This document shows positions 2,112 to 18,658 of a DNA stretch of 32,000 nucleotides, one piece after another (the stretch's first letter is position 1; each line of letters begins with the position of its first letter). The position numbers were made by a program, and so were the translations under genes. This DNA comes from Candidatus Electronema halotolerans. GTDB lineage: Bacteria > Desulfobacterota > Desulfobulbia > Desulfobulbales > Desulfobulbaceae. The stretch is from contig OW818675.1 of NCBI GenBank assembly GCA_942493095.1, positions 270,001 to 302,000 on the forward strand, in the 5' to 3' direction. The notes beneath the pieces are model-generated. The model was not told the DNA's origin and did no database searches. It was given only the letters and a program-made list of their open reading frames with translations.

Positions 2112-2423
2112 ATGAAAAGAATGATTGCTGGACTTATCGGCGGCGTTTTCTTTGCAGGACTGTTCTTGGGCAATGCGGCAGCCAGCGGCGATGATCGCTA
2201 CGAATACGGTGAATACGGCGAGCATGGCCGGTATTACAATCCCTACGGCAACGGCTACTACAACAACGGTTACAGGAATCACGAGATGTACGAGTATGGC
2301 AATCCGTACCGTTATCAGCCTGTCATGCCCAGTGTTTATGTCAATCCGTATTACAACAACAGCTCTTATGGCAACGGCTACAGAAACCATGAGGCCTATG
2401 AGTACGGCGGCTACCGCAGATGA
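2112..2423 (+). CDS. secreted Tyr/Gly/Asn-rich repeat protein (paralog 1)
   Basis: ATG 2112 with GAGGAG (2098-2103) upstream. Signal peptide MKRMIAGLIGGVFFAGLFLGNAAA. The mature part is low-complexity with two NGYRNHE(M/A)YEYG units and ends GGYRR. It shares a 29-nt identical stretch with the 2699 gene (2292-2320 = 2885-2913). Confidence 0.75.
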   Translation: MKRMIAGLIGGVFFAGLFLGNAAASGDDRYEYGEYGEHGRYYNPYGNGYYNNGYRNHEMYEYGNPYRYQPVMPSVYVNPYYNNSSYGNGYRNHEAYEYGGYRR

Positions 2424-2445
2424 GATGATTCAGCGGATAAAAAAA

Positions 2446-2497
2446 CATCATTTTTCATCTGCTGTTCATCTTGAGTTTGGTATCTTGAAAGTATGAG
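2446..2497 (+). promoter_or_regulatory. box C: tandem TTCATCT operator plus -10-like hexamer upstream of the 12-codon stub
   Basis: CATCA at 2446, TTCATCTG at 2454-2461 and TTCATCTT at 2465-2472. After a 6-nt gap comes GGTATCTTGAAAGTAT at 2479-2494, identical to box B. TATGAG at 2492-2497 starts 19 nt after the second repeat. Confidence 0.5.
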
Positions 2498-2563
2498 GAA
2501 CGGGGCGCAAGGGGCTGCGCTCCAAGACTGACAACAGGTCACGACGAAAAAGGAGGTTTGACC

Positions 2564-2602
2564 ATGAAGAAGTTGATTGCAGGATTGATCGGCGGCGTTT
2601 GA
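2564..2602 (+). pseudogene. truncated remnant (signal-peptide stub) of a third Tyr-rich-family paralog
   Basis: AAGGAGG (2550-2556) is followed by ATG 2564, encoding MKKLIAGLIGGV and then TGA at 2600-2602. The peptide matches MKRMIAGLIGGV of the 2112 gene. Box D of the next gene starts about 10 nt later, so the gene body appears deleted. Confidence 0.5.
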
Positions 2603-2611
2603 AGTCCTAAA

Positions 2612-2652
2612 TTAATCTTCTGTTAATCTTTTCTTTGCTATCTTGTTATAAA
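2612..2652 (+). promoter_or_regulatory. box D: tandem TTAATCTT operator plus TATAAA upstream of the 2699 gene
   Basis: TTAATCTT at 2612-2619 and 2623-2630 (11-bp phase). After a 6-nt gap comes GCTATCTTG at 2637-2645. TATAAA at 2647-2652 starts 16 nt after the second repeat. This is a variant of boxes A-C. Confidence 0.45.
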
Positions 2653-2698
2653 CAAAAGCAATTCGCTCTCACCCAAACCCAAAATAGGAGGCTTACTC

Positions 2699-3046
2699 GT
2701 GAAAAAGACAACAGCAGCTATAACCTTGGTTGGCTCGTTCCTCGTACTGGCACTCTTCGCGACTGCCCACGGCAGCGGATACGGCAGCGGATACGGGGGT
2801 GGCTATGGATACGGCAGCCGCTATTATAATCCCTACTATAACAACGGCTATTACAACAACGGCTACAGAAACCATGAGGCGTATGAGTATGGCAATCCGT
2901 ACCGTTATCAGCCGACCGTGCCCAGCGGTTATGCCAATCCGTATTACAATAACTACAATAGTGGTTATTATGGCAACGGCTACTACAACAATGGCTACGG
3001 AAACCATGAGGCTTATGAGTACGGCAACGGCGGCTACCGCAGGTAA
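2699..3046 (+). CDS. secreted Tyr/Gly/Asn-rich repeat protein (paralog 2)
   Basis: GTG 2699 with AGGAGG (2686-2691) 7 nt upstream. Signal peptide MKKTTAAITLVGSFLVLALFATAHG. By hand count the 90-aa mature part has 27 Tyr, 20 Gly and 16 Asn, and no Cys, Trp, Leu, Ile, Met, Phe, Lys or Asp. It carries two NGY(R/G)NHEAYEYG units and ends GGYRR. Confidence 0.75.
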   Translation: MKKTTAAITLVGSFLVLALFATAHGSGYGSGYGGGYGYGSRYYNPYYNNGYYNNGYRNHEAYEYGNPYRYQPTVPSGYANPYYNNYNSGYYGNGYYNNGYGNHEAYEYGNGGYRR

Positions 3047-3117
3047 AAGCGGGCCTGCCGCCTGAGCGAAAGGCGGCGCCATCCCGGCGCAAGTGCCACA
3101 AGCTGGGATAAAAATAT

Positions 3118-3159
3118 GGGTGGTCAGCATAATCATATTGATTTTGGCCACCCTTTTTT
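3118..3159 (+). terminator. rho-independent terminator after the Tyr-rich genes
   Basis: GGGTGGTC (3118-3125) pairs with GGCCACCC (3146-3153) at 7 of 8 positions, with a 20-nt loop, followed by TTTTTT (3154-3159). Confidence 0.5.
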
Positions 3160-3220
3160 GTAAAAGTAAAAAGAAATGAAATTGATTTCATTTCGTTGCA
3201 AGAAAAAAAGGAGGAACCCA

Positions 3221-3535
3221 TTGAAACACGTATTGCTTCTGCTGCCGTTATGTGCGATGCTGCTTGTAGGGACGGCGCGGGCTGATTCGGATGAGCACAG
3301 AGGATATGCCAGCGCAAAATTCTATGGCATCATTGATGCTTTGCCCGAAAACAACAGCATCTTCGGCACATGGCTGATCAACGGCAGGCAGGTTGCGGTC
3401 ACTCGCGGCACGGAGATTGAACAGAAACGCGGCAGAATTGCTCCAGGTGTGTATGTCAAAGTGGAAGGATATCATTCCGGGAGCGTCTTTGTCGCCGAAG
3501 AGATTGAGGTGAAGCGGGAAAAAAGGCGGTCATGA
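3221..3535 (+). CDS. secreted single-domain beta-rich protein (DUF5666-like)
   Basis: TTG 3221 lies 6 nt after GGAGG (3210-3214); the track's upstream ATG 3176 lacks an SD. Signal peptide (M)KHVLLLLPLCAMLLVGTARA. The domain is KFYGIIDALPENNSIFGTWLINGRQVAVTRGTEIEQKRGRIAPGVYVKVEG...VAEEIEVK, homologous to domains in the 3639 and 4377 genes. Confidence 0.7.
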   Translation: MKHVLLLLPLCAMLLVGTARADSDEHRGYASAKFYGIIDALPENNSIFGTWLINGRQVAVTRGTEIEQKRGRIAPGVYVKVEGYHSGSVFVAEEIEVKREKRRS

Positions 3536-3580: not shown

Positions 3581-3638
3581 CATGCGGCAAACCGCATAGC
3601 AATAATTGGACCATGCCGTCCAAAAAGGAGAAGACATC

Positions 3639-4301
3639 ATGAAACGCGCATTCCTTTCCCTGACAGCAGCTCTTGGAGTCTTGGCTTTATTCGCAGTTTC
3701 CGCCCAAGCCAGCCCGGGTGAATATTATGAACGCGGCAGAGGGTATTATGGCAGTGGATATTACGGTGGTGGCGGAGGATATTACGGGGCAAGCAAGTTC
3801 TACGGCACAGTGGAAGCCATGCCGCCTGCCGGTTTTGCAGGGATATGGCAGATCAACGGACGGGATGTGGTGGTCAATCAGCGCACCTTCATCAAGGAGG
3901 AATATGGCAGAATTGGTGTTGGGGCGTATGTTGAAGTGAAAGGCGGCGGCAATCCTTTCATGGCCTATGAGCTTGAAGTGAAACGCGGCGGAATGCCGGC
4001 TCCGCCTCCTCCAGCAATGGGCGGCGGGATGAATCTCTCCGGCTCTGCGGGAGTCATGCCGCCTTCCGGGTCTGTCGGCACTCCTCCTCCAGCAATGGCT
4101 GGGGTGAATTTCACCGGTCCGGTGGAGTCGCTGCCTCCGACTGGTTTTTTTGGCACGTGGCGAATCGGCGGGCGTGATGTGATTGTCAATAATGGCACCC
4201 GCATCAAGCAGGAGAACGGCCCAATCAGCGCGGGCAGCAATGTTGATGTTAAGGGCGGCGGCAATCCCTTTGTCGCTTATGAAATCGAAAGCAAACCCTG
4301 A
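3639..4301 (+). CDS. secreted protein with a Tyr/Gly-rich N-terminus and two DUF5666-like domains joined by a Pro/Met-rich linker
   Basis: ATG 3639 follows AAGGAG (3625-3630). Signal peptide MKRAFLSLTAALGVLALFAVSAQA, then GEYYERGRGYYGSGYYGGGGGYYG. Domain 1 is KFYGTVEAMPPAGFAGIWQINGRDVVVNQRT...VEVKGGGNPFMAYELEVK. The linker is GGMPAPPPPAMGGGMNLSGSAGVMPPSGSVGTPPPAMAG. Domain 2 is NFTGPVESLPPTGFFGTWRIGGRDVIVNNGT...VDVKGGGNPFVAYEIE. Confidence 0.8.
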   Translation: MKRAFLSLTAALGVLALFAVSAQASPGEYYERGRGYYGSGYYGGGGGYYGASKFYGTVEAMPPAGFAGIWQINGRDVVVNQRTFIKEEYGRIGVGAYVEVKGGGNPFMAYELEVKRGGMPAPPPPAMGGGMNLSGSAGVMPPSGSVGTPPPAMAGVNFTGPVESLPPTGFFGTWRIGGRDVIVNNGTRIKQENGPISAGSNVDVKGGGNPFVAYEIESKP

Positions 4302-4376: not shown

Positions 4377-4718
4377 ATGAACAGCAGCAATCTCCGCAGC
4401 ATCTTTGTCCTGCTGGCCGCTCTCTCCTTCCTCTGCGCAGGTGCTGCGCAGGCGGAGGAGCGGGAGCGTCCGCATTTCTACCAGCCAGGCGCAGGCTATG
4501 AGAAGGAGCCGACCTACACCTTTACCGGCGTGATCCGCAAGCTGCCGGAAAAAGGCAAGGTCGGCATCTGGGTTATTGACGACCGTCTGATCGTTGTCAC
4601 TTCCATGAGCCAGATTCACGGCACGGCGGCGGTCGGTGCCAGCGTCACGGTCAAAGGGGTGCTGCAAGACACTGATTTTCTTGCTCTCACCATTGAAGTT
4701 GCGGCCAGCAAGGACTGA
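4377..4718 (+). CDS. secreted single-domain beta-rich protein (DUF5666-like)
   Basis: Signal peptide MNSSNLRSIFVLLAALSFLCAGAAQA. The domain TFTGVIRKLPEKGKVGIWVIDDRLIVVTSMSQIHGTAAVGASVTVKG...LALTIEV aligns with the three domains upstream. No obvious SD. Confidence 0.65.
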   Translation: MNSSNLRSIFVLLAALSFLCAGAAQAEERERPHFYQPGAGYEKEPTYTFTGVIRKLPEKGKVGIWVIDDRLIVVTSMSQIHGTAAVGASVTVKGVLQDTDFLALTIEVAASKD

Positions 4719-4840: not shown

Positions 4841-5434
4841 ATGAGTGCCACCGCACCTGAAACCGCCCCGCTGGGCACACCGGTCCGCTTCTGGCATTTG
4901 GCCATGATTGTCTTGGTGCTTGCCGCACTGTTCACTGGCGAGGGAGCTGATGACTATAAAAAAGTGGAACATGCCGGATTCCTTCTCCACGGCAGGGTCG
5001 GCCTGTCTGTGTTCACCGCGCTCTGCCTGTATTTTTTGTACGGTCTGATCGGGCCGCAAGGACACCGACTTTCCAGCTGGTTTCCCTTCACAGGAGCACG
5101 GCTGCGGCAGACTGGCAAGGATCTGGCCGTGCTGACCCGCTTCAAGCTGCCGGAACACAATCGGCGGCAGGGCCTGGCTGGCTTGGTGCAGTTTTTCGGC
5201 CTGCTGGTTTTTTCCTGGCTTGCAGTCACTGGCAGTCTGATGTATTTTTTTATGGAGCGGGGTGCCAAGGCGCAGGGCCTCATGCACGCGGTCAAAGAGG
5301 CGCATGAAGCCGGGACCGTGCTGATTTTCGTCTATTTAGCCCTGCATGTCGGGGCCGTGATCGCGCACTCGCTGACCGGGCATCACGTCTGGCAGGACAT
5401 TTTCTTCCTGAAAAAGGAGCCAGGGGAATCTTGA
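4841..5434 (+). CDS. cytochrome b561-family (CybB/YceJ-like) di-haem membrane protein
   Basis: AAGGAGGAG lies upstream. There are four TM segments with His residues in the pattern of bacterial cytochrome b561: RFWHL in TM1, LLHGRVG in TM2, EAHEAG before TM4 and LHVGAVIAHSL in TM4. The stop at 5432-5434 is 1 nt before the response regulator start. Confidence 0.7.
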   Translation: MSATAPETAPLGTPVRFWHLAMIVLVLAALFTGEGADDYKKVEHAGFLLHGRVGLSVFTALCLYFLYGLIGPQGHRLSSWFPFTGARLRQTGKDLAVLTRFKLPEHNRRQGLAGLVQFFGLLVFSWLAVTGSLMYFFMERGAKAQGLMHAVKEAHEAGTVLIFVYLALHVGAVIAHSLTGHHVWQDIFFLKKEPGES

Positions 5435-5435
5435 A

Positions 5436-6110
5436 ATGAAAATTCTGGTGGTTGAGGATGAGAGGCGGCTGACGGCTCTGCTCAAAAAAGGTCTGGAGGA
5501 AAACGCCTTTGTCGTCGATGTCTGTTATGACGGCGCGGAAGGACTGTACTTAGTCGAAACCTCGCCTTATGATGCGGTGGTGCTGGATGTCATGATGCCC
5601 AAGATGGACGGCTTCACCATGCTGCGCCGGATGCGGGAGCAGGGCCTTGAAACGCCGGTCATCATGCTCACTGCCAGAGGCGAGGTGGATAACCGGATCA
5701 AAGGGCTGAACACCGGCGCGGATGACTATCTGCCCAAGCCCTTTGATTTTGCTGAACTGCTTGCCCGGCTGACTGCAATTATCCGGCGGAACAAGGGCCA
5801 GTCCGCCTCGCAGGTGTGCATTGCTGATCTGTACATGGATATAAATTCCAAAACCGTGGCCAGAAGCGGGGTTGACATTCCGCTCACCGCCAAGGAGTAT
5901 GCGATTCTCGAATATCTCGCCCTGAACAAAGGCCGGGTGGTCAGCCGGACGGAATTCTCCGAGCATATTTATGATATGAATTTCGACTTGGACAGCAACA
6001 TCATTGATGTCTATATCAACCGCCTGCGCAATAAAATTGACAAAGGCCATGCCTGCCCCCTGATTCACACCAAACGGGGCGAGGGCTACATTTTGAGCGA
6101 GGAGCTGTGA
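5436..6110 (+). CDS. OmpR/PhoB-family response regulator, CusR/CopR-like
   Basis: Receiver motifs are MKILVVEDE, VVLDVMMPKMDG and LTARGEVDNRIKGLNTGADDYLPKPFDFAELLARL. The C-terminal winged-helix domain contains LTAKEYAILEYL and IHTKRGEGY. The sequence closely resembles E. coli CusR from memory. Confidence 0.95.
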   Translation: MKILVVEDERRLTALLKKGLEENAFVVDVCYDGAEGLYLVETSPYDAVVLDVMMPKMDGFTMLRRMREQGLETPVIMLTARGEVDNRIKGLNTGADDYLPKPFDFAELLARLTAIIRRNKGQSASQVCIADLYMDINSKTVARSGVDIPLTAKEYAILEYLALNKGRVVSRTEFSEHIYDMNFDLDSNIIDVYINRLRNKIDKGHACPLIHTKRGEGYILSEEL

Positions 6111-7516
6111 TCCTGATCAACTCCATCAAGGGCCGTCTGCTGCTCTGGATTTTTATTTCTGTCACCATCCTGTTTGCCGGTTTTGGCTATGCCCTGCACC
6201 TCAAGCTCCATTATGTGGTCGAGGAGTCGCTGGACCGGATGCTTCATGCCAATCTCCAGTTTGTCAAGGGGCTGGTGCACAGTCATGACGGCGTGACTAT
6301 TGAGTGCGAGTCCAATGAATTCATGCAGGGGGATTACATGACCCCGGACTCCGGCCACTATTACAAGGTCTTTCTTGACGGCGAGCTGCTCGCGGCGGCA
6401 GATTCCCTGCCGGATAAAAATTTCAATCTCACGCAGGGCGAGCCGCTGGAGCATCATGCCAGAGCCAAGGAATGGGTCTATCAGGCCAAGGGCGCGAACG
6501 GCGAGCCGCTGCGGGTATTGCGGCATGATTTCAAGTTCATGGGCAAAGATGTCCGCATTGAGTTGGCCGAGGATATCAATGAGAGCATGGTGATGATTCA
6601 CCGTCTAAGCAATTACTTCCTGATTGTCACCCCAGTGGTGATTATGCTGATTGCCTTGATCAGCATAACCATCGCCTCCCTGTCGCTGCGGCCTTTGGAT
6701 AGATTTTCTGTCACCTTGGAACAGATCAGTCATAAAAATTTAGATGTCCGGCTGGCGGAACAGACTCAAGTGCGGGAGCTGCAGCGGCTGGCAAAAAAAT
6801 TCAATTCTCTGATGGCCCGGCTCCAGCAGGCTTTTGAGGCGGAAAAGCATCTGCTCGGCGATGCGGCCCATGAACTGAAAACGCCGCTGGCCGTGATCAA
6901 GGCCGAATGCGACATTTCCCTGAGCAGGAGCAGAGCGGCGGATCAGTATGCGGGCAGCCTCAGGGAAGTGCGGACTGTGGCAGACACCATGCTGGAGCAG
7001 ATCAATGGTTTGCTGATACTGACCCGTTTAGATTCCGGCATTTTGGATGCCGGGACCTTTGAGCAGCTTTCTCTGAACAGCTGTGTGGAAAATGCGGTGC
7101 GGATGGCCGAGCCGCTGGCCAAGAAAAAAAACATTGCCATCAGCATTGCCCAGAACAGCGAGCTGACCGTCTTGGGCGACAAGGACACCCTGACTGAGGC
7201 AGTGCTCAATCTTGTTGAAAACGCGATTAAATACAACCACCCTGGCGGCTTTGTCGCGGTCAAGCTGACCAAGCGGGCGGCGATGGCGGAAATCGTGGTC
7301 ATTGACACCGGCATCGGCATCAGCGAGGAGGATCGGACGCGGATTTTTGACCGGTTCTACCGTTCTGCTGAGGCCCGCAATGCGGAAGGAAGCGGCTTGG
7401 GTCTGAGCATAGTCCGAGCCATTGCCCAAACGCATCATGGTGAAATTACTGTTGAAACACCACCAGACGGCGGCAGTCGCTTCATCCTCAAACTGCCGCT
7501 GACTGTCTCAGCTTGA
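6107..7516 (+). CDS. sensor histidine kinase, CusS/CopS-like (two TM segments, periplasmic domain, HAMP, HisKA, HATPase)
   Basis: GTG 6107 overlaps the regulator stop (GTGA). TM1 is LLLWIFISVTILFAGF and TM2 is LIVTPVVIMLIALISITIASL. H-box is AAHELKTPLA, N-box is ENAIKYN, and the G-boxes are DTGIGI and GSGLGLSIV. Confidence 0.92.
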   Translation: MILINSIKGRLLLWIFISVTILFAGFGYALHLKLHYVVEESLDRMLHANLQFVKGLVHSHDGVTIECESNEFMQGDYMTPDSGHYYKVFLDGELLAAADSLPDKNFNLTQGEPLEHHARAKEWVYQAKGANGEPLRVLRHDFKFMGKDVRIELAEDINESMVMIHRLSNYFLIVTPVVIMLIALISITIASLSLRPLDRFSVTLEQISHKNLDVRLAEQTQVRELQRLAKKFNSLMARLQQAFEAEKHLLGDAAHELKTPLAVIKAECDISLSRSRAADQYAGSLREVRTVADTMLEQINGLLILTRLDSGILDAGTFEQLSLNSCVENAVRMAEPLAKKKNIAISIAQNSELTVLGDKDTLTEAVLNLVENAIKYNHPGGFVAVKLTKRAAMAEIVVIDTGIGISEEDRTRIFDRFYRSAEARNAEGSGLGLSIVRAIAQTHHGEITVETPPDGGSRFILKLPLTVSA

Positions 7517-9670: not shown

Positions 9671-10675
9671 TCAGATGGCCTTGTTGGCCTCCATGTGCAG
9701 GACCAAGTCCAGCATCCGGTTGGAATAGCCCCATTCATTGTCATACCAGCTCATGACCTTGACAGTGCTGCCCAAGACCCGGGTGCAGAGACCATCAACA
9801 ATGGAGGAATGCGGATCACCCTGAAAATCAATCGAAACCAGCGGCTCCTCGCAGTAGCGCAGATAGCGGTTGGCCGCCTCCTGCAAGGCTTTGTTGACCT
9901 CAGCGACTGTGGTTTCCTGTTCCACCTCCATGACTGCGTCAACCAGAGAGACATTGGGGGTGGGCACCCGCACGGCCAAGCCGTCAAACTTGTTCTTCAG
10001 CTCCGGGATGACCAAGGCCACTGCCGAGGCCGCGCCGGTTTTGGTCGGAATCATGGACAGGGCTGCGGCCCGCGCCCGGCGCAGGTCAGAATGGGGAAAA
10101 TCAAGCAGCCGTTGGTCGCCGGTGTAGGCATGAACCGTGGTCATCAGGCCGCGCTTGATGCCGAAATTGTCCAAGATCACCCGCGCCATTGGAGCCAGGC
10201 AGTTGGTGGTGCAGGAGGCATTGGAGACCACATGATGCACGGTTGGATCGTACTCGTCCTCGTTCACGCCCATGACAATGGTCTTGATCGCGCCCTTGGC
10301 CGGAGCCGAGATGATCACCTTGGCCGCGCCTGCGTCAATATGGGCTTTGGCTGAGTCCTCGTCCCGGAAGATGCCCGTGCATTCGAGCACATACTCAGCA
10401 CCTGCCTCGCCCCAGGGGATGTCTGCCGGGTTGCGGTGGTTGCTGACTGGAATTTCCTTGCCATTGACAAAGATGCTGCGCTCGCCGACCGTGACCTCCG
10501 CCTTGAATCTGCCCATGATCGAGTCATATTTGAGCAGATGGGCGATGGTCTTGACATCGGTGAGATCATTGATGCCGACCACTTCGATGTCAGCAAATTC
10601 CTTGTCCTCGCTGATTGCCCGGAAGATGTTCCTGCCGATCCGGCCCAGCCCGTTGATGCCTATTTTGATGCTCAT
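9671..10675 (-). CDS. gap: glyceraldehyde-3-phosphate dehydrogenase, type I
   Basis: Motifs are IGINGLGRIGRNIFR, SNASCTTNCLAP and WYDNEWGYSNR. Confidence 0.97.
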   Translation of the reverse strand: MSIKIGINGLGRIGRNIFRAISEDKEFADIEVVGINDLTDVKTIAHLLKYDSIMGRFKAEVTVGERSIFVNGKEIPVSNHRNPADIPWGEAGAEYVLECTGIFRDEDSAKAHIDAGAAKVIISAPAKGAIKTIVMGVNEDEYDPTVHHVVSNASCTTNCLAPMARVILDNFGIKRGLMTTVHAYTGDQRLLDFPHSDLRRARAAALSMIPTKTGAASAVALVIPELKNKFDGLAVRVPTPNVSLVDAVMEVEQETTVAEVNKALQEAANRYLRYCEEPLVSIDFQGDPHSSIVDGLCTRVLGSTVKVMSWYDNEWGYSNRMLDLVLHMEANKAI

Positions 10676-10734
10676 GGCCTTGCTCCTTTTTTGTGATGAT
10701 TTGTGCCGCCGTGTCCGGCTGACCCGGAAAATGA

Positions 10735-12645
10735 TTACAGAAATGCCGCCCGGAAGTCAACAACTTTCTTCGGCAGGCTGCAGCAGCGGGATTCATGTTC
10801 CTCTATCGTGCGGAGGAGCACGCCGCTCAGATCCTCTGCCGTGTAAAAGTCGCTTTTATAGACCCGCTTGCCGTCTGGCGCAAAAACAACCAAAAGCGGG
10901 ATGCTCAGGCTGCCTGCCTGCCGGAGCATCTCCCGGCCCGGCGGATTGCTGCCCGTGATGTCAACCTTCATCGGCACCACCTCATCCCGGTTGAGCAGGC
11001 GGACGATTTTCGGGCTGTCCAGCACGCCCTGCTCCAGTGCCTTGCAGTTCAGGCACCACTCGGCAGTGAAGACCATGACCACAGCCTTGTCTTGAGCGCG
11101 GGCCTGCTCAAGGCGTTCCGGGCTGTAATAGACCCAGTTGATTGGCCCTTGGTCGGTCAGATTGACGGCACCATATCCTGAGATGACGATCAGCAGCAGG
11201 CCAAGGCCCATGAAAAAAACTTTCAAGGGGCCGCCAGAGGCAATCCGAAAGGTGCGCCAGAAGAGCCAGCCGCCTGCGGTCGTAGAACAGGCCATCACCA
11301 GCCACCAATGCTGTTTGTCTGGCGGATCAGTCGGTGAGGTCAGCAGCGTTTCCGTGCCAATGCCGATGAAATACACTGCCGCCGCCAGCATGAGCAGGCC
11401 CATGACCTGTTTGACCAAGACGCTGGCCGGACCGCTGCGGGGCATTTTTTCGACTAAATGCGGGGCAGCGGAGAGCAGCAGGTAGGGCAGGGCCATGCCT
11501 GAGCCAATGGCGGCAAAAACAGCCAAGGTGGCGGTCGGCGGTCTGGTCGCAGCCCATGCCGCAGCCGCGCCCATGAACGGAGCTGTGCAAGGGGTTGACA
11601 GCACTGCCGCCAAAATGCCTAAGCCAAAGGAACCGTGCAGGCTGTCCTGTTCCGGGTGGATCAAATAAAGCCACTGTGGCAGGGGCAGGGAAAAAAAGTC
11701 AAACATGCCCAAAGCCATGACCCCGATGACCACGCCCACAGCAATGGTGAAGGCTGGATATTGAAAAAGCTGGTTGGTGGCACTGAAGCCGCTCACCAAG
11801 GCGATCAGGCCGCCCAAGAGCAGCCAGAAGGCCAAGACCCCCAAGGACATGGCCGTGCCCAGCAGCAGGCACTGCCGCCGGTCTTTCGCCGCGTATGACA
11901 GGCTGATGATCTTGATCGGAATCAGCGGCAGGACGCAGGGGGTGAAATTGAGAAGCAGACCGCCAAGGGCGGCAATGCTCAACAGGAGCAGCATTCCAGC
12001 CCAAGAAGAGCCGTTGACCGCGAACTTCCAGCCGAAAACCCGGAAATGAATCTGGTCATGGGAAGAAGCAGAAGCAAGCCGCTGCGGATTGTATCCGGCA
12101 AACAGCTCCTGATTGACCGGCTGCGGGACCGCTACAGGATCAACAATCTCCAACGAGGTTTCCAAGCGGATCGTCTGCGGCAGCAGGCAATGATTTTCCG
12201 TGCAGGCCTGATAGGTAAAGTTCAAGCTCAGACTTGGCCGTGCGCCCGGAGCAAGGTTGTCGGCAAATTTGACTGGCAGATAGATGACAGCCTGCCCGGA
12301 AAAGGACATCAGGCCGTTCTTGGCATATTGCGCTTTGAACCGCGCCGCCGCCGGATAGAGCGGGCTTTCCGTGAGCAGTCCTTCATCCGCCTTGATCACG
12401 GAAAGCTGGCTGGGATAAGGCGTGAAGAAATCAGCCGCAGGTTTGAGCTGGCGGGCATCCGCGTTGATATGGAAGCCGTCTTGAATCTGGACGGCAATGG
12501 CCAGAGCCAAGGCATCACCGGGCCGGGCGCGGTCAACAGACCAGTATGGCACTGCTTTGACTGGTTCGGCGGCAAAGACAGTTTGTGGCAGAAAAACTGC
12601 GACCAGCATGGCTGTCAGCAGCAGTTTGTAAAAAAAATTATTCAT
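10735..12645 (-). CDS. dsbD: thiol:disulfide interchange protein DsbD-like (alpha domain, CcdA-type membrane core, C-terminal thioredoxin)
   Basis: I prefer ATG 12645, which gives the signal peptide MNNFFYKLLLTAMLVAVFLPQTVFA. The membrane core carries the conserved Cys-Pro contexts NFTPCVLPLIP and LSTPCTAPFMG. The C-terminal thioredoxin fold contains WCLNCK. Confidence 0.88.
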   Translation of the reverse strand: MNNFFYKLLLTAMLVAVFLPQTVFAAEPVKAVPYWSVDRARPGDALALAIAVQIQDGFHINADARQLKPAADFFTPYPSQLSVIKADEGLLTESPLYPAAARFKAQYAKNGLMSFSGQAVIYLPVKFADNLAPGARPSLSLNFTYQACTENHCLLPQTIRLETSLEIVDPVAVPQPVNQELFAGYNPQRLASASSHDQIHFRVFGWKFAVNGSSWAGMLLLLSIAALGGLLLNFTPCVLPLIPIKIISLSYAAKDRRQCLLLGTAMSLGVLAFWLLLGGLIALVSGFSATNQLFQYPAFTIAVGVVIGVMALGMFDFFSLPLPQWLYLIHPEQDSLHGSFGLGILAAVLSTPCTAPFMGAAAAWAATRPPTATLAVFAAIGSGMALPYLLLSAAPHLVEKMPRSGPASVLVKQVMGLLMLAAAVYFIGIGTETLLTSPTDPPDKQHWWLVMACSTTAGGWLFWRTFRIASGGPLKVFFMGLGLLLIVISGYGAVNLTDQGPINWVYYSPERLEQARAQDKAVVMVFTAEWCLNCKALEQGVLDSPKIVRLLNRDEVVPMKVDITGSNPPGREMLRQAGSLSIPLLVVFAPDGKRVYKSDFYTAEDLSGVLLRTIEEHESRCCSLPKKVVDFRAAFL

Positions 12646-13942: not shown

Positions 13943-14298
13943 GTTCCTCCACCCGTCAAACTAGTAATGACGACCTCTGTTTTCAACGAAAACTCAGAGT
14001 CTTGCATCCCGTTCCTTATTGAATTGTCCATGATGGAACGCCGCTTGTCAAGCGGCAAATTCAAGGAAAGAAAAAAAGAGGCGCGTCAACCTTGTCAGCC
14101 ACTTTTTCCGAGCCTGAGCAATACCGAAACCACTGGCCCGAACCCGGCTTTTTCATTTTACAACTTTTCAACTCGCGGCTGGTCGGGTAGAATGCCAAGG
14201 CAGTCCGCCCGGACCGCATCGGTTTCCTTCAGCCGGTTCCTTGGGTGCATCCGCATCATGCGCGCATGATGGCTCCAAACAGTTTCAAGAGGTTTTTT

Positions 14299-15702
14299 GT
14301 GCAAGGCAAAGTGCTTATCGCCAATCGCGGGGAAATTGCCATCCGCATCATGGAAGCCTGTCAGGCTCTGGGGCTTGACTTTGCAGTCATTTACACCGAG
14401 GCTGACCGCGACTCCGAGCATGTCCGGCGATGTCAGCTCAAAGGGCCGGACCAGAACGCCTGGCGGGTGGTCAGCTATACAGACCCCAATGATCTGCTGG
14501 CTGTGGCCGATCACAGCGGCTGCACTGCCGTGCATCCGGGCTATGGCTTTTTTTCCGAAGACTGGCGTTTTGCCCGTCGGGTGACAGTGCGTGACCGACC
14601 CCTGACCTTTATTGGCCCCAGCTGGGAGGTGATCCGCGATCTTGGCGACAAGATCAACACCAAGCGGATTGCCCAGAAATTGGACATCCCCACCATTCCC
14701 GGCACCTCCGCGCCGATCTACAATGAAATGGAGGCTGAGGAGATTGCCCAGCACATCCTTGACATTCAGCGCGAGCAGAGGGAGCCAAACCCGGCAGTCT
14801 TGGTCAAGGCGGCGGCTGGCGGCGGCGGCATGGGCATTGAGGAGGTCAGCCGGATTGAGCAGTTCCGCCGGGTTTATCGACAGGTGCAGAACTATGCCAA
14901 ACGGCAGTTTGGTGACGGCGGGGTGCTGATTGAGCAGCGGCTCTGCGATTTCAACCACTTGGAAGTGCAGCTTGTCTGCTCGCGCCACGATGAGCGCATC
15001 CATTTCGGCACCCGCAACTGCACCATTCAATCCACAGGCCGCCAGAAGCGGGTCGAGGCCGCGCCTGGCTTTCACTCCTCCTGTTTTCAGTACGACTTTG
15101 ATTCGGAACAGGTTTTGGACAGCGTGGTTGAACATTCGCTCAAGCTGGCTGACTCGGTCAAATACGACAACGTCGGCACGTGGGAGTGGATTGTCAGCCG
15201 CAGCGGCAGGCCCTACTTGCTGGAGGTCAACACCCGCATTCAGGTGGAGAACGATGTTTCGGCCCGGATCAGCTATTTGAACGGCAAGCATCCCAATCTG
15301 CTCCAAGAGCAGATCCGGCTGGCCTTGGGCGAGCAGATGGGCTACGAACAAAATGACGTTATTTTCAAAGGCGCGAGCATTGAGCTGCGCCTTGTGGCCG
15401 AGAATCCGGCCCGCGACTTTGCCCCGTGGATTGGCACCATCACCCGCTTTGACCTGCCCAGATATGAATGGTCGGCAGTCTATAGCCATGTCCCTTCTGA
15501 CCGGCCCTATCCCATTCCCAGCGAGTATGATCCCAACTTGGCTTTGGCCTTGGTCTGGGGCGACACCGTGGAGCAGGCCAAGGAGCGGGCGCGGCAGTTC
15601 ATCGACAACTGCCATATTGAAGGCGCGGACAGCGCAGGCGGCTCCATCCTCACCAATCTCGATTATCTCCGCAGAAACCTTGACCGGCTGCTGACCTTCT
15701 GA
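14299..15702 (+). CDS. accC: biotin carboxylase (AccC-like, divergent)
   Basis: I prefer GTG 14299, 6 nt after AAGAGG (14287-14292), which gives MQGKVLIANRGEIA. The track start at 14245 and ATGs at 14266/14269 have no SD. ATP-grasp motifs are HPGYGF, KAAAGGGGMG, NHLEVQLV and EVNTRIQVE. Confidence 0.85.
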   Translation: MQGKVLIANRGEIAIRIMEACQALGLDFAVIYTEADRDSEHVRRCQLKGPDQNAWRVVSYTDPNDLLAVADHSGCTAVHPGYGFFSEDWRFARRVTVRDRPLTFIGPSWEVIRDLGDKINTKRIAQKLDIPTIPGTSAPIYNEMEAEEIAQHILDIQREQREPNPAVLVKAAAGGGGMGIEEVSRIEQFRRVYRQVQNYAKRQFGDGGVLIEQRLCDFNHLEVQLVCSRHDERIHFGTRNCTIQSTGRQKRVEAAPGFHSSCFQYDFDSEQVLDSVVEHSLKLADSVKYDNVGTWEWIVSRSGRPYLLEVNTRIQVENDVSARISYLNGKHPNLLQEQIRLALGEQMGYEQNDVIFKGASIELRLVAENPARDFAPWIGTITRFDLPRYEWSAVYSHVPSDRPYPIPSEYDPNLALALVWGDTVEQAKERARQFIDNCHIEGADSAGGSILTNLDYLRRNLDRLLTF

Positions 15703-15736
15703 GTGCAAAGTCGGCAGACTGTTTTCTCATACCACC

Positions 15737-18582: not shown

Positions 18583-18658
<76 letters not shown>

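Follow-up and report, generated by a model that had tools for sequence, protein, structure and literature searches.

What use does a bacterium have for small exported proteins in which more than a quarter of the residues are tyrosines? The question is raised by a 32,000-nucleotide stretch of the genome of Candidatus Electronema halotolerans, a member of the Desulfobulbaceae (Desulfobacterota) and a cable bacterium (contig OW818675.1, positions 270,001 to 302,000; the whole stretch is called the window below), which carries two neighbouring open reading frames (ORFs) on the plus strand: gene 1 (2112-2423, ATG start, 103 amino acids) and gene 2 (2699-3046, GTG start, 115 amino acids). Both ORFs had been pointed out in a first-pass annotation, which described their products as secreted paralogs of extreme composition, rich in Tyr, Gly and Asn, in which NHExYEY units are conserved; the ORFs were found as claimed, and signal peptides, residue counts and alignment all agree with the description. 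Four features treated below were not part of that annotation: a promoter box common to these genes, the chimeric nature of gene 2, a 12-codon gene remnant at 2564-2602, and a conserved set of DUF5666, cytochrome b561 and two-component genes downstream. The analysis presented here indicates that the two genes belong to an undescribed family and, putatively, to the regulon of an adjacent two-component system. It leads us to suggest, tentatively, that their products bind cations, probably metal ions, in the periplasm.

The product of each gene begins with a Sec-type signal peptide, comprising residues 1-24 in the gene 1 protein (MKRMIAGLIGGVFFAGLFLGNAAA/SGDD, cleavage AAA/SGDD) and residues 1-25 in the gene 2 protein (MKKTTAAITLVGSFLVLALFATAHG/SGYG). 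A Shine-Dalgarno sequence lies upstream of each start codon (GAGGAG for gene 1, AGGAGG for gene 2). The mature gene 1 chain has 79 residues (9.6 kDa, pI 5.8; Tyr 26.6%, Gly 15.2%, Asn 13.9%), the mature gene 2 chain 90 residues (10.4 kDa, pI 7.8; Tyr 30.0%, Gly 22.2%, Asn 17.8%), and neither contains Cys. For the gene 2 protein the recount reproduces the approximately 30% Tyr, 22% Gly and 18% Asn estimated earlier. The accompanying statement that this protein has no aliphatic residues and no Cys was right for Cys but not for the aliphatic residues, since the chain includes 3 Ala and 1 Val; the gene 1 protein has 3 Val, 1 Ala and 2 Met. Tyr, Gly and Asn together make up 56-70% of the mature chains, which places them among the N/Q/Y/G-rich low-complexity sequences typical of prion-like proteins. 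With 27-30% Tyr, 15-22% Gly and 79-90 mature residues they are also small, Sec-exported, repetitive Gly/Tyr-rich proteins of the general kind of the sulfur-globule proteins (Sgp). Besides genes 1 and 2 the 32 kb contain one Tyr-dense ORF segment, the N-terminal tail of a protein with DUF5666 domains (3639-4301). The gene 1 protein is 100% identical to the hypothetical protein GCAAIG_01250 of Ca. Electronema halotolerans, annotated in the same frame in the source genome, and gene 2 was independently called as a 115-amino-acid gene in another assembly.

Codon alignments of the two window genes and 10 relatives from other loci yielded dN/dS ratios of 0.14-0.27 in the annotated frame, a range that covers every pair but one pair of near-identical recent duplicates. 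Gene 1 compared with its orthologs gave 0.14-0.23, and gene 2 compared with its counterpart on a metagenome contig from a close relative (L007, 896-1237) gave 0.27. Between orthologs as well as between paralogs the differences are concentrated at third codon positions, and the protein is kept across species despite DNA divergence (dS 0.35 to >1). On the evidence of these alignments both ORFs are real, tandemly duplicated genes under purifying selection. Four further long ORFs overlap them: 2001-2390 and 2693-3151 on the minus strand, and 2125-2496 and 2730-3065 on the plus strand. Because third-position changes dominate and dN/dS is low in the annotated frame, these ORFs, in the +2 frame or on the opposite strand, are most likely shadows of the biased codon content.

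The family has a narrow range. A word-indexed search of 5.8 billion proteins returned 26 matches, none of them named, and an exhaustive profile search of 1.84 billion cluster representatives returned 9. Scanning one genome per species (185,579 species) with a sequence pattern led to five confirmed loci, in four Electronema species (KV, aureum GS, TJ and JC) and one metagenome-assembled genome of the Desulfobulbaceae. Below, the five related genome loci are referred to as L001-L005, L002 being that of E. aureum GS; L006, like L007, is a metagenome contig. Neither protein matched a family in Pfam (E up to 10) or NCBIfam (E up to 0.01), and the family profile matched no chain in the PDB (E up to 10).

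In an alignment of 22 sequences the signal peptide is followed by SGDD-x-YEYGE-x-YEHGRYYNPY, NGYYNNGYRNHE-x-YEY, a linker (DDDDYRYRG or GNPYRYQP), VNPYYN, a second GYYNNGYRNHEAYEY and a terminal GGYRR. The mature protein thus begins with an N-terminal segment that is acidic in gene 1, continues with a repeat unit present twice (Y-x-N-P-Y ... G-Y-Y-N-N-G-Y-R-N-H-E-x-Y-E-Y) and closes with a basic GGYRR end. The block shared by the window proteins according to the first-pass annotation, the second NGY(R/G)NHEAYEYG unit and the GGYRR ends were all found in both proteins. Twelve alignment columns are invariant (G39, Y42, N43, N51, H57, E58, E61, Y90, N92, H93, E94 and E97); half of these are the His and Glu residues of two HExxE motifs (H57, E58, E61, H93, E94, E97). 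More than 12 Tyr columns are conserved at 90% or above. AlphaFold, run on the family alignment, predicted a signal-peptide helix followed by no secondary structure (mean pLDDT 46.5), a model consistent with an intrinsically disordered mature part.

Some relatives are far richer in His, among them P0136 and the protein encoded at 9015-9329 of L002. The latter gene is the first of the array in E. aureum; its product is rich in His, Arg and Asp, with approximately 14 His per approximately 80 mature residues, and it has the signal peptide type and the promoter box of the Tyr-rich genes. The cable-bacteria literature searched contains no description of the Tyr-rich genes, the DUF5666 proteins, the cytochrome b561 or the two-component system discussed below, and the Tyr-rich genes are not listed in the supplements examined of papers from 2026. 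The family, its composition, the promoter box and the joined module are undescribed; small low-complexity periplasmic proteins under the control of an envelope two-component system are a familiar kind.

How are the two genes related? Judged by their alignment, they are paralogs without any doubt: over 192 aligned nucleotides the bodies share 83% identity (32 differences), and the repeat finder detected a 75-nt unit in four copies as well as a 112-nt direct repeat at 86% identity. The first-pass annotation had invoked gene conversion or unequal recombination on the strength of a 29-nt identical stretch (2292-2320 and 2885-2913) and a 23-nt match between the C-terminal unit of gene 1 and the first unit of gene 2. 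The 29-nt identity is exact. The cross-register match is exact too, but it extends over 24 nt (2372-2395 and 2857-2880), not 23. Given the identity of the paralogs a 29-nt run is not exceptional (permutation P approximately 0.10), and we dropped it as evidence for gene conversion in favour of an argument from linker sharing. The linker is GNPYRYQP(V/T)(M/V)PS in both window paralogs, whereas it is DDYRYRGAARNVYVNPYY in the two paralogs of L007. The bodies of the window paralogs are 80% identical, those of positional orthologs of gene 1 66%. Since linkers are common within, not between, genomes and paralogs are more alike than orthologs, the genes appear to have evolved in concert; the process proposed earlier holds, on grounds other than the 29-nt run.

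The 5′ part of gene 2 has another origin. Approximately the first 40 residues of its product (MKKTTAAITLVGSFLVLALFATAHGSGYGSGY...) match a second family of secreted Tyr/Arg-rich proteins (P0018-P0023, with RYEYRG-type repeats), not the NHExYEY family; the N-terminus also matches the genes of L006. This second family has no match in Pfam, NCBIfam or the PDB. By these alignments gene 2 is a chimera, whose promoter, signal peptide and GSGYGSGY start come from the second family and whose body comes from the NHExYEY family. Upstream of it, at 2564-2602 on the plus strand, lies a gene remnant of 12 codons (MKKLIAGLIGGV followed by a stop) with its own ribosome-binding site. It matches the start of gene 1, with 76% identity over the repeat (D5) that covers the remnant region. 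The remnant represents the original gene 2 signal peptide, left behind with an orphan promoter box (2454-2472) after the 5′ replacement. This orphan promoter and the remnant indicate that the 5′ end of the second copy gave way to a segment of a second-family gene, which brought along its promoter, its signal peptide and its initial Gly/Tyr run. Chimera, remnant and orphan promoter are all present in L007 as well (intact gene 896-1237, orphan box 652-670), which implies that the event predates the split between the window and L007 lineages and that the product has been maintained. The simplest reading of the linker pattern is homogenisation within each genome after the chimera arose. Gene 2 is a clear case of a promoter and signal-peptide swap between two low-complexity gene families.

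In L006 three second-family genes stand in tandem (1232-2486; GSGYGSGY..., RYEYRG repeats). A promoter box of the TTAATCT type precedes at least two of them; in front of the third, none was found within 2 mismatches. On either side of the array lies a homolog of the membrane protein whose gene occupies 65-865 of the window (minus strand).

What controls the two genes? The sequence TTCATCT-N4-TTCATCTT occurs in three exact copies in the window (starting at 1630, 2000 and 2454), and a variant, TTAATCT-N4-TTAATCTT, which has two mismatches to the TTCATCT form, occurs once (at 2612); all are on the plus strand. The four boxes lie 87-112 nt upstream of the starts of a gene for a 79-amino-acid protein, gene 1, the remnant and gene 2. 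When up to 3 mismatches were allowed, the window contained 7 matches compared with 1.26 expected, and none of 100 shuffled sequences reached 7. The first copy (TTCATCTTTCTTTCATCTT, 1630-1648, repeat family D4) is 104 nt upstream of the 79-codon ORF at 1734-1973. The second (TTCATCTTTCGTTCATCTT, 2000-2018) is the putative promoter of gene 1; 5 nt past it stands an extended -10-like sequence of the form TGnTAnnnT (TGGTATCTT, 2024-2032). The third (TTCATCTGCTGTTCATCTT, 2454-2472) is the orphan that precedes the remnant. The variant (TTAATCTTCTGTTAATCTT, 2612-2630) is the putative promoter of gene 2, apparently imported with the new 5′ end. A box and leader identical to those of gene 2 precede the second-family genes of L006, gene 2 of L007 and an operon in L010.

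TGnTAnnnT follows most copies of the box at a distance of 5-6 bases; a few copies deviate in its first two bases. We infer that it is an extended -10 element and that the box occupies the -35 position, as a pho box does. PhoB/OmpR-type regulators acting by class II activation bind such sites, among them the pho box and the PmrA box. Like the pho box, the box described here consists of two direct repeats with 11-bp spacing, at the place of the -35 element and 8 bp upstream of the -10. The TTAAT-N6-TTAAT variant resembles the PmrA box, with similar half-site spacing. The box sequence is not known to be that of any named regulator. We also considered TGGTAT-N-TTGAAA as a sigma-54 promoter and rejected it by eye, as no copy has the GG-N10-GC spacing or the GC dinucleotide.

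The box is 86-113 nt upstream of the orthologs in L001, L002, L004 and L007, and together with the -10 element it precedes Tyr-rich genes and extra Tyr-tailed DUF5666 genes in L001-L005 and L007. It is also found directly 5′ of an operon encoding DUF5666 proteins and a cytochrome b561 in Electrothrix YB6 (L008, 5981), L010 (7065), L013 (6999) and L015 (6961). In L010 and L013 the operon behind the box encodes the regulator and kinase as well. Because the box precedes the regulator-encoding operon across phyla, the simplest assumption is that it is the regulator's own operator. The box is thus a putative operator of the OmpR-type regulator adjacent to the window genes, and by extension the Tyr-rich genes would be members of that two-component system's regulon. 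If so, they are Electronema-specific additions to an old envelope regulon.

Gene 2 is followed by a terminator-like hairpin, GGGUGGUCA...UGGCCACCC with UUUUUU (3118-3159, plus strand; hairpin part 3118-3153), which ends the gene 2 unit; the predicted RNA fold of 3047-3165 has -50.1 kcal/mol (z = -4.0). A second predicted hairpin (2424-2470, -17 kcal/mol, z = -5.7) pairs the region behind the gene 1 stop codon with the first half of the next box, and may serve as a terminator or an occlusion element, or may have arisen by chance. Just 5′ of the first DUF5666 gene is a perfect palindrome, AAATGAAAT-TG-ATTTCATTT (3174-3193), which resembles the CusR/CopR box. As a CusR-like box of the DUF5666 operon it was discarded: it is not conserved in L001-L005, and at approximately 30 nt from the start codon it is too near. 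A generic scan of the window for sigma-70 promoters and terminators gave nothing above background and missed plausible elements. The Rfam scan of the window gave a single match, a tRNA at 18583-18655.

Which genes accompany the family? One or two Tyr-rich genes stand directly upstream of DUF5666 genes in all five related loci. Three DUF5666 genes were matched in L001, L002, L004 and L005; in L003 the third, DUF5666c, was unmatched. In four of the five loci a cytochrome b561, an OmpR-family regulator and a HAMP-HisKA kinase follow, whereas none of the three was matched in L004. In the window all these genes are on the plus strand. DUF5666a (3221-3535) is a secreted protein with a single OB-like barrel (Pfam PF18914, E = 1.8e-10). 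DUF5666b (3639-4301) has two domains and a Tyr/Gly-rich N-terminal tail, GEYYERGRGYYGSGYYGGGGGYYG. DUF5666c (4377-4718) is a weak Pfam match, syntenic in L001, L002, L004 and L005. The PF18914 scores were 41.4 bits for ORF 3176-3535 and 47.6 bits for ORF 3606-4301 (cut-off 27), and 18.1 bits, below the cut-off, for 4377-4718; the Tyr-rich proteins themselves have no PF18914 match. In the AlphaFold model DUF5666a is a six-stranded OB-like barrel with pLDDT above 90 in the domain. Its nearest folds in the PDB are PilY2 and CusF, both weak matches (E 3e-3 to 1e-2).

The cytochrome b561 (PF01292, a membrane protein) is encoded at 4841-5434, the response regulator (Response_reg and Trans_reg_C domains), which we presume to bind the box, at 5436-6110, and the sensor histidine kinase (HAMP-HisKA-HATPase) at 6107-7516. 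In NCBIfam the regulator scored best with the heavy-metal regulator model TIGR01387 (CopR/CusR/CzcR; 254.6 bits, under the cut-off of 279.2) and the kinase with the heavy-metal sensor kinase model TIGR01386 (CopS/CusS/CzcS; 245.7 bits, under the cut-off of 292.55). CusR, HprR and PmrA come next after the heavy-metal models in the ranking. The periplasmic part of the kinase has no sequence match to any solved sensor in the PDB, including CusS.

The pairing of DUF5666 genes with cytochrome b561 was found in Electrothrix, other Desulfobulbaceae and Nitrospiraceae, so this uncharacterised module of box, DUF5666 and cytochrome b561 extends beyond cable bacteria. At the syntenic place Electrothrix sp. 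YB6 has three DUF5666 genes and the cytochrome b561, with a carbonic anhydrase and GAPDH nearby; no Tyr-rich gene was found at this locus of YB6, the one Electrothrix genome examined. Genomes at a greater distance keep the pair too. In L010 the pair, with regulator and kinase, adjoins ZnuABC and a ZIP transporter. In L013 it is accompanied by a membrane protein, a multihaem cytochrome c, the regulator and the kinase. The pair is also kept in L015, a Nitrospiraceae genome. When Dissulfuribacter thermophilus disproportionates thiosulfate, a DUF5666 protein is one of its most abundant proteins (PMC13490349).

Extra DUF5666 genes occur upstream of the Tyr-rich genes in L002 (9509-9856), L004 (8154 and 8779) and L005 (4471). 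In their products an OB-like domain is combined with low-complexity modules of the same kind, namely N-terminal tails with HEYGYGYGYGRGYGY and C-termini of the GGYRYR type. The multihaem cytochrome c of L013 (9282-10568, many CxxCH motifs) ends in a Tyr/His/Asp-rich C-terminal tail, DSGYNYYDHDAGGHHDEDHDKHDDD.

Are the Tyr-rich genes expressed? Table S1 of a preprint on nitrate reduction by Ca. Electronema sp. GS (10.1101/2020.02.22.960823) lists the 100 most transcribed of its 2,649 genes. PilA is first in that list. Ga0183576_14111 holds rank 8 (19,659 reads per kilobase per million, RPKM; log2 change with nitrate -0.11), Ga0183576_14112 rank 13 (RPKM 12,251; log2 -2.02, adjusted p 0.98) and Ga0183576_14114 rank 75 (RPKM 4,176; log2 -0.45). 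Exact look-ups identified CDV28_14111 as the extra DUF5666 gene of L002 (9509-9856), 14113 as DUF5666a (10536-10850), 14114 as DUF5666b, 14115 as DUF5666c and the next accession as the cytochrome b; the mapping of tags assumes that IMG and NCBI share their numbering. Between 14111 and 14113 every ORF of notable size overlaps with the ortholog of the Tyr-rich genes (L002, 10001-10342). Because the flanking tags map to DUF5666 genes and there is no other sizeable ORF between them, 14112 should be the locus of the Tyr-rich ortholog, and by its position this gene appears to be among the most transcribed of E. aureum GS.

What, then, do the proteins do? The answer that we favour, tentatively and at somewhat less than even odds, is that they are an abundant periplasmic cation binder with multiple sites, analogous to SilE and PcoE, which acts through its HExxE motifs and perhaps tyrosinate ligands and may work together with the DUF5666 proteins. 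The Tyr-rich genes would have been made by copying the regulon promoter, would be kept alike by gene conversion and would be expressed at a very high level. In the periplasm their products would form a multivalent 'molecular sponge' in the manner of SilE/PcoE, in which the His-Glu-x-x-Glu motifs, and possibly nearby tyrosines, chelate a borderline or hard ion such as Ni, Zn, Cu(II), Co or Fe. This sponge would either buffer the ion or supply the DUF5666 proteins, with their OB fold, and the cytochrome b561 module with it.

That the His-Glu pairs might ligate metals had been proposed in the first-pass annotation, and the invariant HExxE columns together with the heavy-metal-like regulator and kinase lend the proposal indirect support. 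The cluster as a whole seems to have a metal flavour: in addition to the heavy-metal-type regulator and kinase there are the CusF-like fold of DUF5666, ZnuABC and ZIP in L010 and the His/Asp-rich tail in L013. The silE gene adjoins silRS, a heavy-metal two-component system. SilE itself is a small, disordered periplasmic metal sponge of the sil operon (PMC5008109). The Tyr-rich proteins resemble SilE and PcoE in being small, Sec-exported and without a stable fold, with a repeated short His-containing motif; that they are disordered periplasmic proteins is predicted from the low pLDDT and the typical Sec signal. Like silE their genes lie beside a two-component system; its regulator and kinase score best with the heavy-metal models, below the TIGR01387/TIGR01386 cut-offs, and the shared box putatively links the Tyr-rich genes to it. 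There is no sequence similarity. SilE relies on His and Met (HxxM, MxxH) and binds soft ions, whereas the Tyr-rich proteins have His and Glu (HExxE; N-H-E-x-Y-E), 0-2 Met and 27-30% Tyr. The DUF5666 proteins are comparable with CusF, a periplasmic Cu(I)/Ag(I) chaperone (PDB 1zeq, 2qcp, 3e6z), as small periplasmic OB-like beta-barrels whose genes adjoin a CusRS-like system, and Foldseek gave TM-scores of 0.5-0.69 to the DUF5666a model. They differ from it in that identity is 13-15% (E 3e-3 to 1e-2), the His/Met ligands are not evident, and PilY2 and nucleic-acid OB folds score about equally.

Several observations weigh against a cation sponge. The window proteins are poor in His (2-3 per mature chain), contain no Cys and have few or no Met. 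What they conserve most strongly is Tyr (27-30%), a residue that a simple metal sponge could do without. The heavy-metal scores of regulator and kinase are under the curated NCBIfam cut-offs, and in sequence the periplasmic domain of the kinase is unlike any solved sensor, CusS included. The match to the CusF fold is weak (E approximately 3e-3) and concerns an OB fold of generic type, with no evident conservation of the CusF ligands. The partner cytochrome b561, along with the multihaem cytochrome c of L013, points equally or more to redox chemistry. In the window and in L001-L005 the box was not found directly upstream of DUF5666a, and the link of the family to the expression of 14112 is gene order only.

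The prominence of Tyr keeps alive a second reading, in which the proteins would be a structural, self-assembling envelope material. Tyr-Tyr and Tyr-Arg contacts or dityrosine cross-links would then build up a gel, a coat or a sheath within the periplasm shared along the filament. We regard this as doubtful, yet deserving of serious consideration. Parallels are known in CotC/CotU, in the sulfur-globule proteins with their Gly/Tyr-rich chains, in FUS-like low-complexity domains and in mussel foot protein 3. The first-pass annotation had pointed to phase-separating or amyloid-forming proteins on the ground of composition; the AlphaFold model has no beta structure in the mature part and bears on disorder only. 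CotC/CotU of the Bacillus subtilis spore coat and mussel foot protein 3 are, like the proteins described here, short and secreted or deposited, with 20-30% Tyr plus Gly/Asn/Arg or Lys/Asp, and they use Tyr for cross-linking or adhesion; they belong to unrelated organisms and compartments, and the likeness is one of composition alone. The extreme conservation of Tyr (more than 12 columns at 90% or above), the [G/S]Y[G/S] runs of gene 2 and of second-family genes, and the disorder predicted by AlphaFold suit such a role. So does the transcript level, rank 13 where PilA is rank 1, which is of the order expected for a structural protein. The Y-R-(Y)-R C-terminus common to the Tyr-rich and the extra DUF5666 proteins could be a docking motif. 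However, the family is missing from the syntenic locus of the one Electrothrix genome examined, and no Electrothrix was among the hits of the genome scan, so it is not a universal part of the envelope or fibres of cable bacteria. Two-component control and an inducible-type promoter fit a response protein better than a constitutive building block, and the invariant residues include His, Glu and Asn besides Tyr and Gly.

We consider it rather unlikely that the role is redox, with the tyrosines serving as sacrificial or recyclable reductants (sinks for radicals or holes), or as an electron relay in the periplasm. They would cooperate with the cytochrome b561, which links the quinone pool to the periplasm, under HprRS-like oxidant-sensing control. 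Filaments exposed to O2 must handle periplasmic reactive oxygen species. The core of the regulon consists of DUF5666 and cytochrome b561, to which L013 adds a multihaem cytochrome c, and the regulator scores 209.5 bits against HprR. Oxic controls had approximately 4-fold more transcript of the E. aureum locus than nitrate samples (log2 -2.02), a difference that was not significant (adjusted p = 0.98). The proteins have no cofactor-binding motif and lack Cys, Met and Trp, a redox role leaves the invariant HExxE motifs unexplained, and no family member was found at the examined Electrothrix locus despite the same lifestyle.

It is very improbable that the proteins are of the sulfur-globule type, coating periplasmic zero-valent sulfur formed by sulfide oxidation, a comparison that the first-pass annotation had drawn. 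Cable bacteria are not known to form sulfur globules. The Sgp proteins of purple sulfur bacteria (SgpA-D) are reportedly of approximately 10 kDa with a Sec signal and Gly/Tyr-rich repeats, and very abundant. In size, signal, repetitive Gly/Tyr-rich composition, high expression and a sulfide-oxidising host the Tyr-rich proteins resemble them, and the abundance of a DUF5666 protein in D. thermophilus during thiosulfate disproportionation (PMC13490349) is in line with it. The Tyr-rich proteins differ in being rich in Asn with His/Glu motifs, in occurring, as far as seen, only in Electronema-type genomes, and in being encoded next to a cytochrome b561 under putative two-component control. The analogy is one of composition: no Pfam (E up to 10) or NCBIfam model and no solved structure matches, the genes are not at the syntenic locus of the one Electrothrix genome examined, and the cluster contains no sulfur enzyme.

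It is scarcely credible that the ORFs are no genes at all, being by-products of simple DNA repeats or masking a true gene in another frame or strand: long ORFs are indeed present on the minus strand (2001-2390, 2693-3151) and in another plus-strand frame (2125-2496, 2730-3065), and the annotated 14112 product of E. aureum was not matched to the expected sequence (the exact look-up queries were imprecise and this result carries no weight), but dN/dS is well below 1 with third-position changes dominant in the proposed frame, the signal peptide, ribosome-binding site, promoter and terminator are all oriented to the plus strand, the protein is conserved while the DNA diverged (dS 0.35 to >1), and the source genome annotates a gene in the same frame.

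What would cation-binding proteins mean for the organism? Cable bacteria conduct electrons over centimetres via periplasmic fibres, and their activity mobilises metals in sediment. In a comparative study no convincing candidate for periplasmic nickel binding was found in cable bacteria (PMC11976967). It is conceivable, though we think it improbable, that an abundant periplasmic matrix loaded with metal is made up jointly of the Tyr-rich proteins, the DUF5666 proteins with Tyr-rich tails and the members of the second, Tyr/Arg-rich family. Cytochrome b561 would connect this matrix with the quinone pool, and long-distance conduction would be what it serves. If this were true, the matrix could, for example, store or deliver nickel for the conductive fibres, insulate or embed them, or relay charge via dense tyrosine arrays, and the module of box, DUF5666, cytochrome b561 and two-component system would be an unrecognised envelope system across several phyla. 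Even as metal buffers of an ordinary kind, the proteins would reveal the way in which Electronema deals with periplasmic metal ions. The locus offers an undescribed exported family, apparently highly transcribed in a cultured Electronema strain, with a defined promoter box and a putative cognate two-component system.

Other genes of the window surround the cluster. The plus-strand ORF behind the first box (1734-1973) encodes a signal-peptide protein of 79 amino acids, possibly a lipoprotein (LLAC), with the same promoter type. It has no Pfam match; its C-terminal LLLNLSLDKELP motif is conserved in L007. On the minus strand, 873-1454 encodes a secreted protein of 193 amino acids with a lysine-rich KKGSK-repeat tail and no family match, and adjoins the gene for the 266-amino-acid membrane protein at 65-865. 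Farther downstream two ORFs overlap almost completely on opposite strands, 14158-15708 (minus, 516 amino acids) and 14245-15702 (plus, 485 amino acids); the minus-strand ORF has no Pfam match. Between the kinase gene and this pair, the segment 7508-13942 encodes a ThiF-family enzyme, an alpha-type (eukaryotic-type) carbonic anhydrase, GAPDH, DsbD and OmpW. The first four of these genes are syntenic with the cluster in other Electronema genomes.

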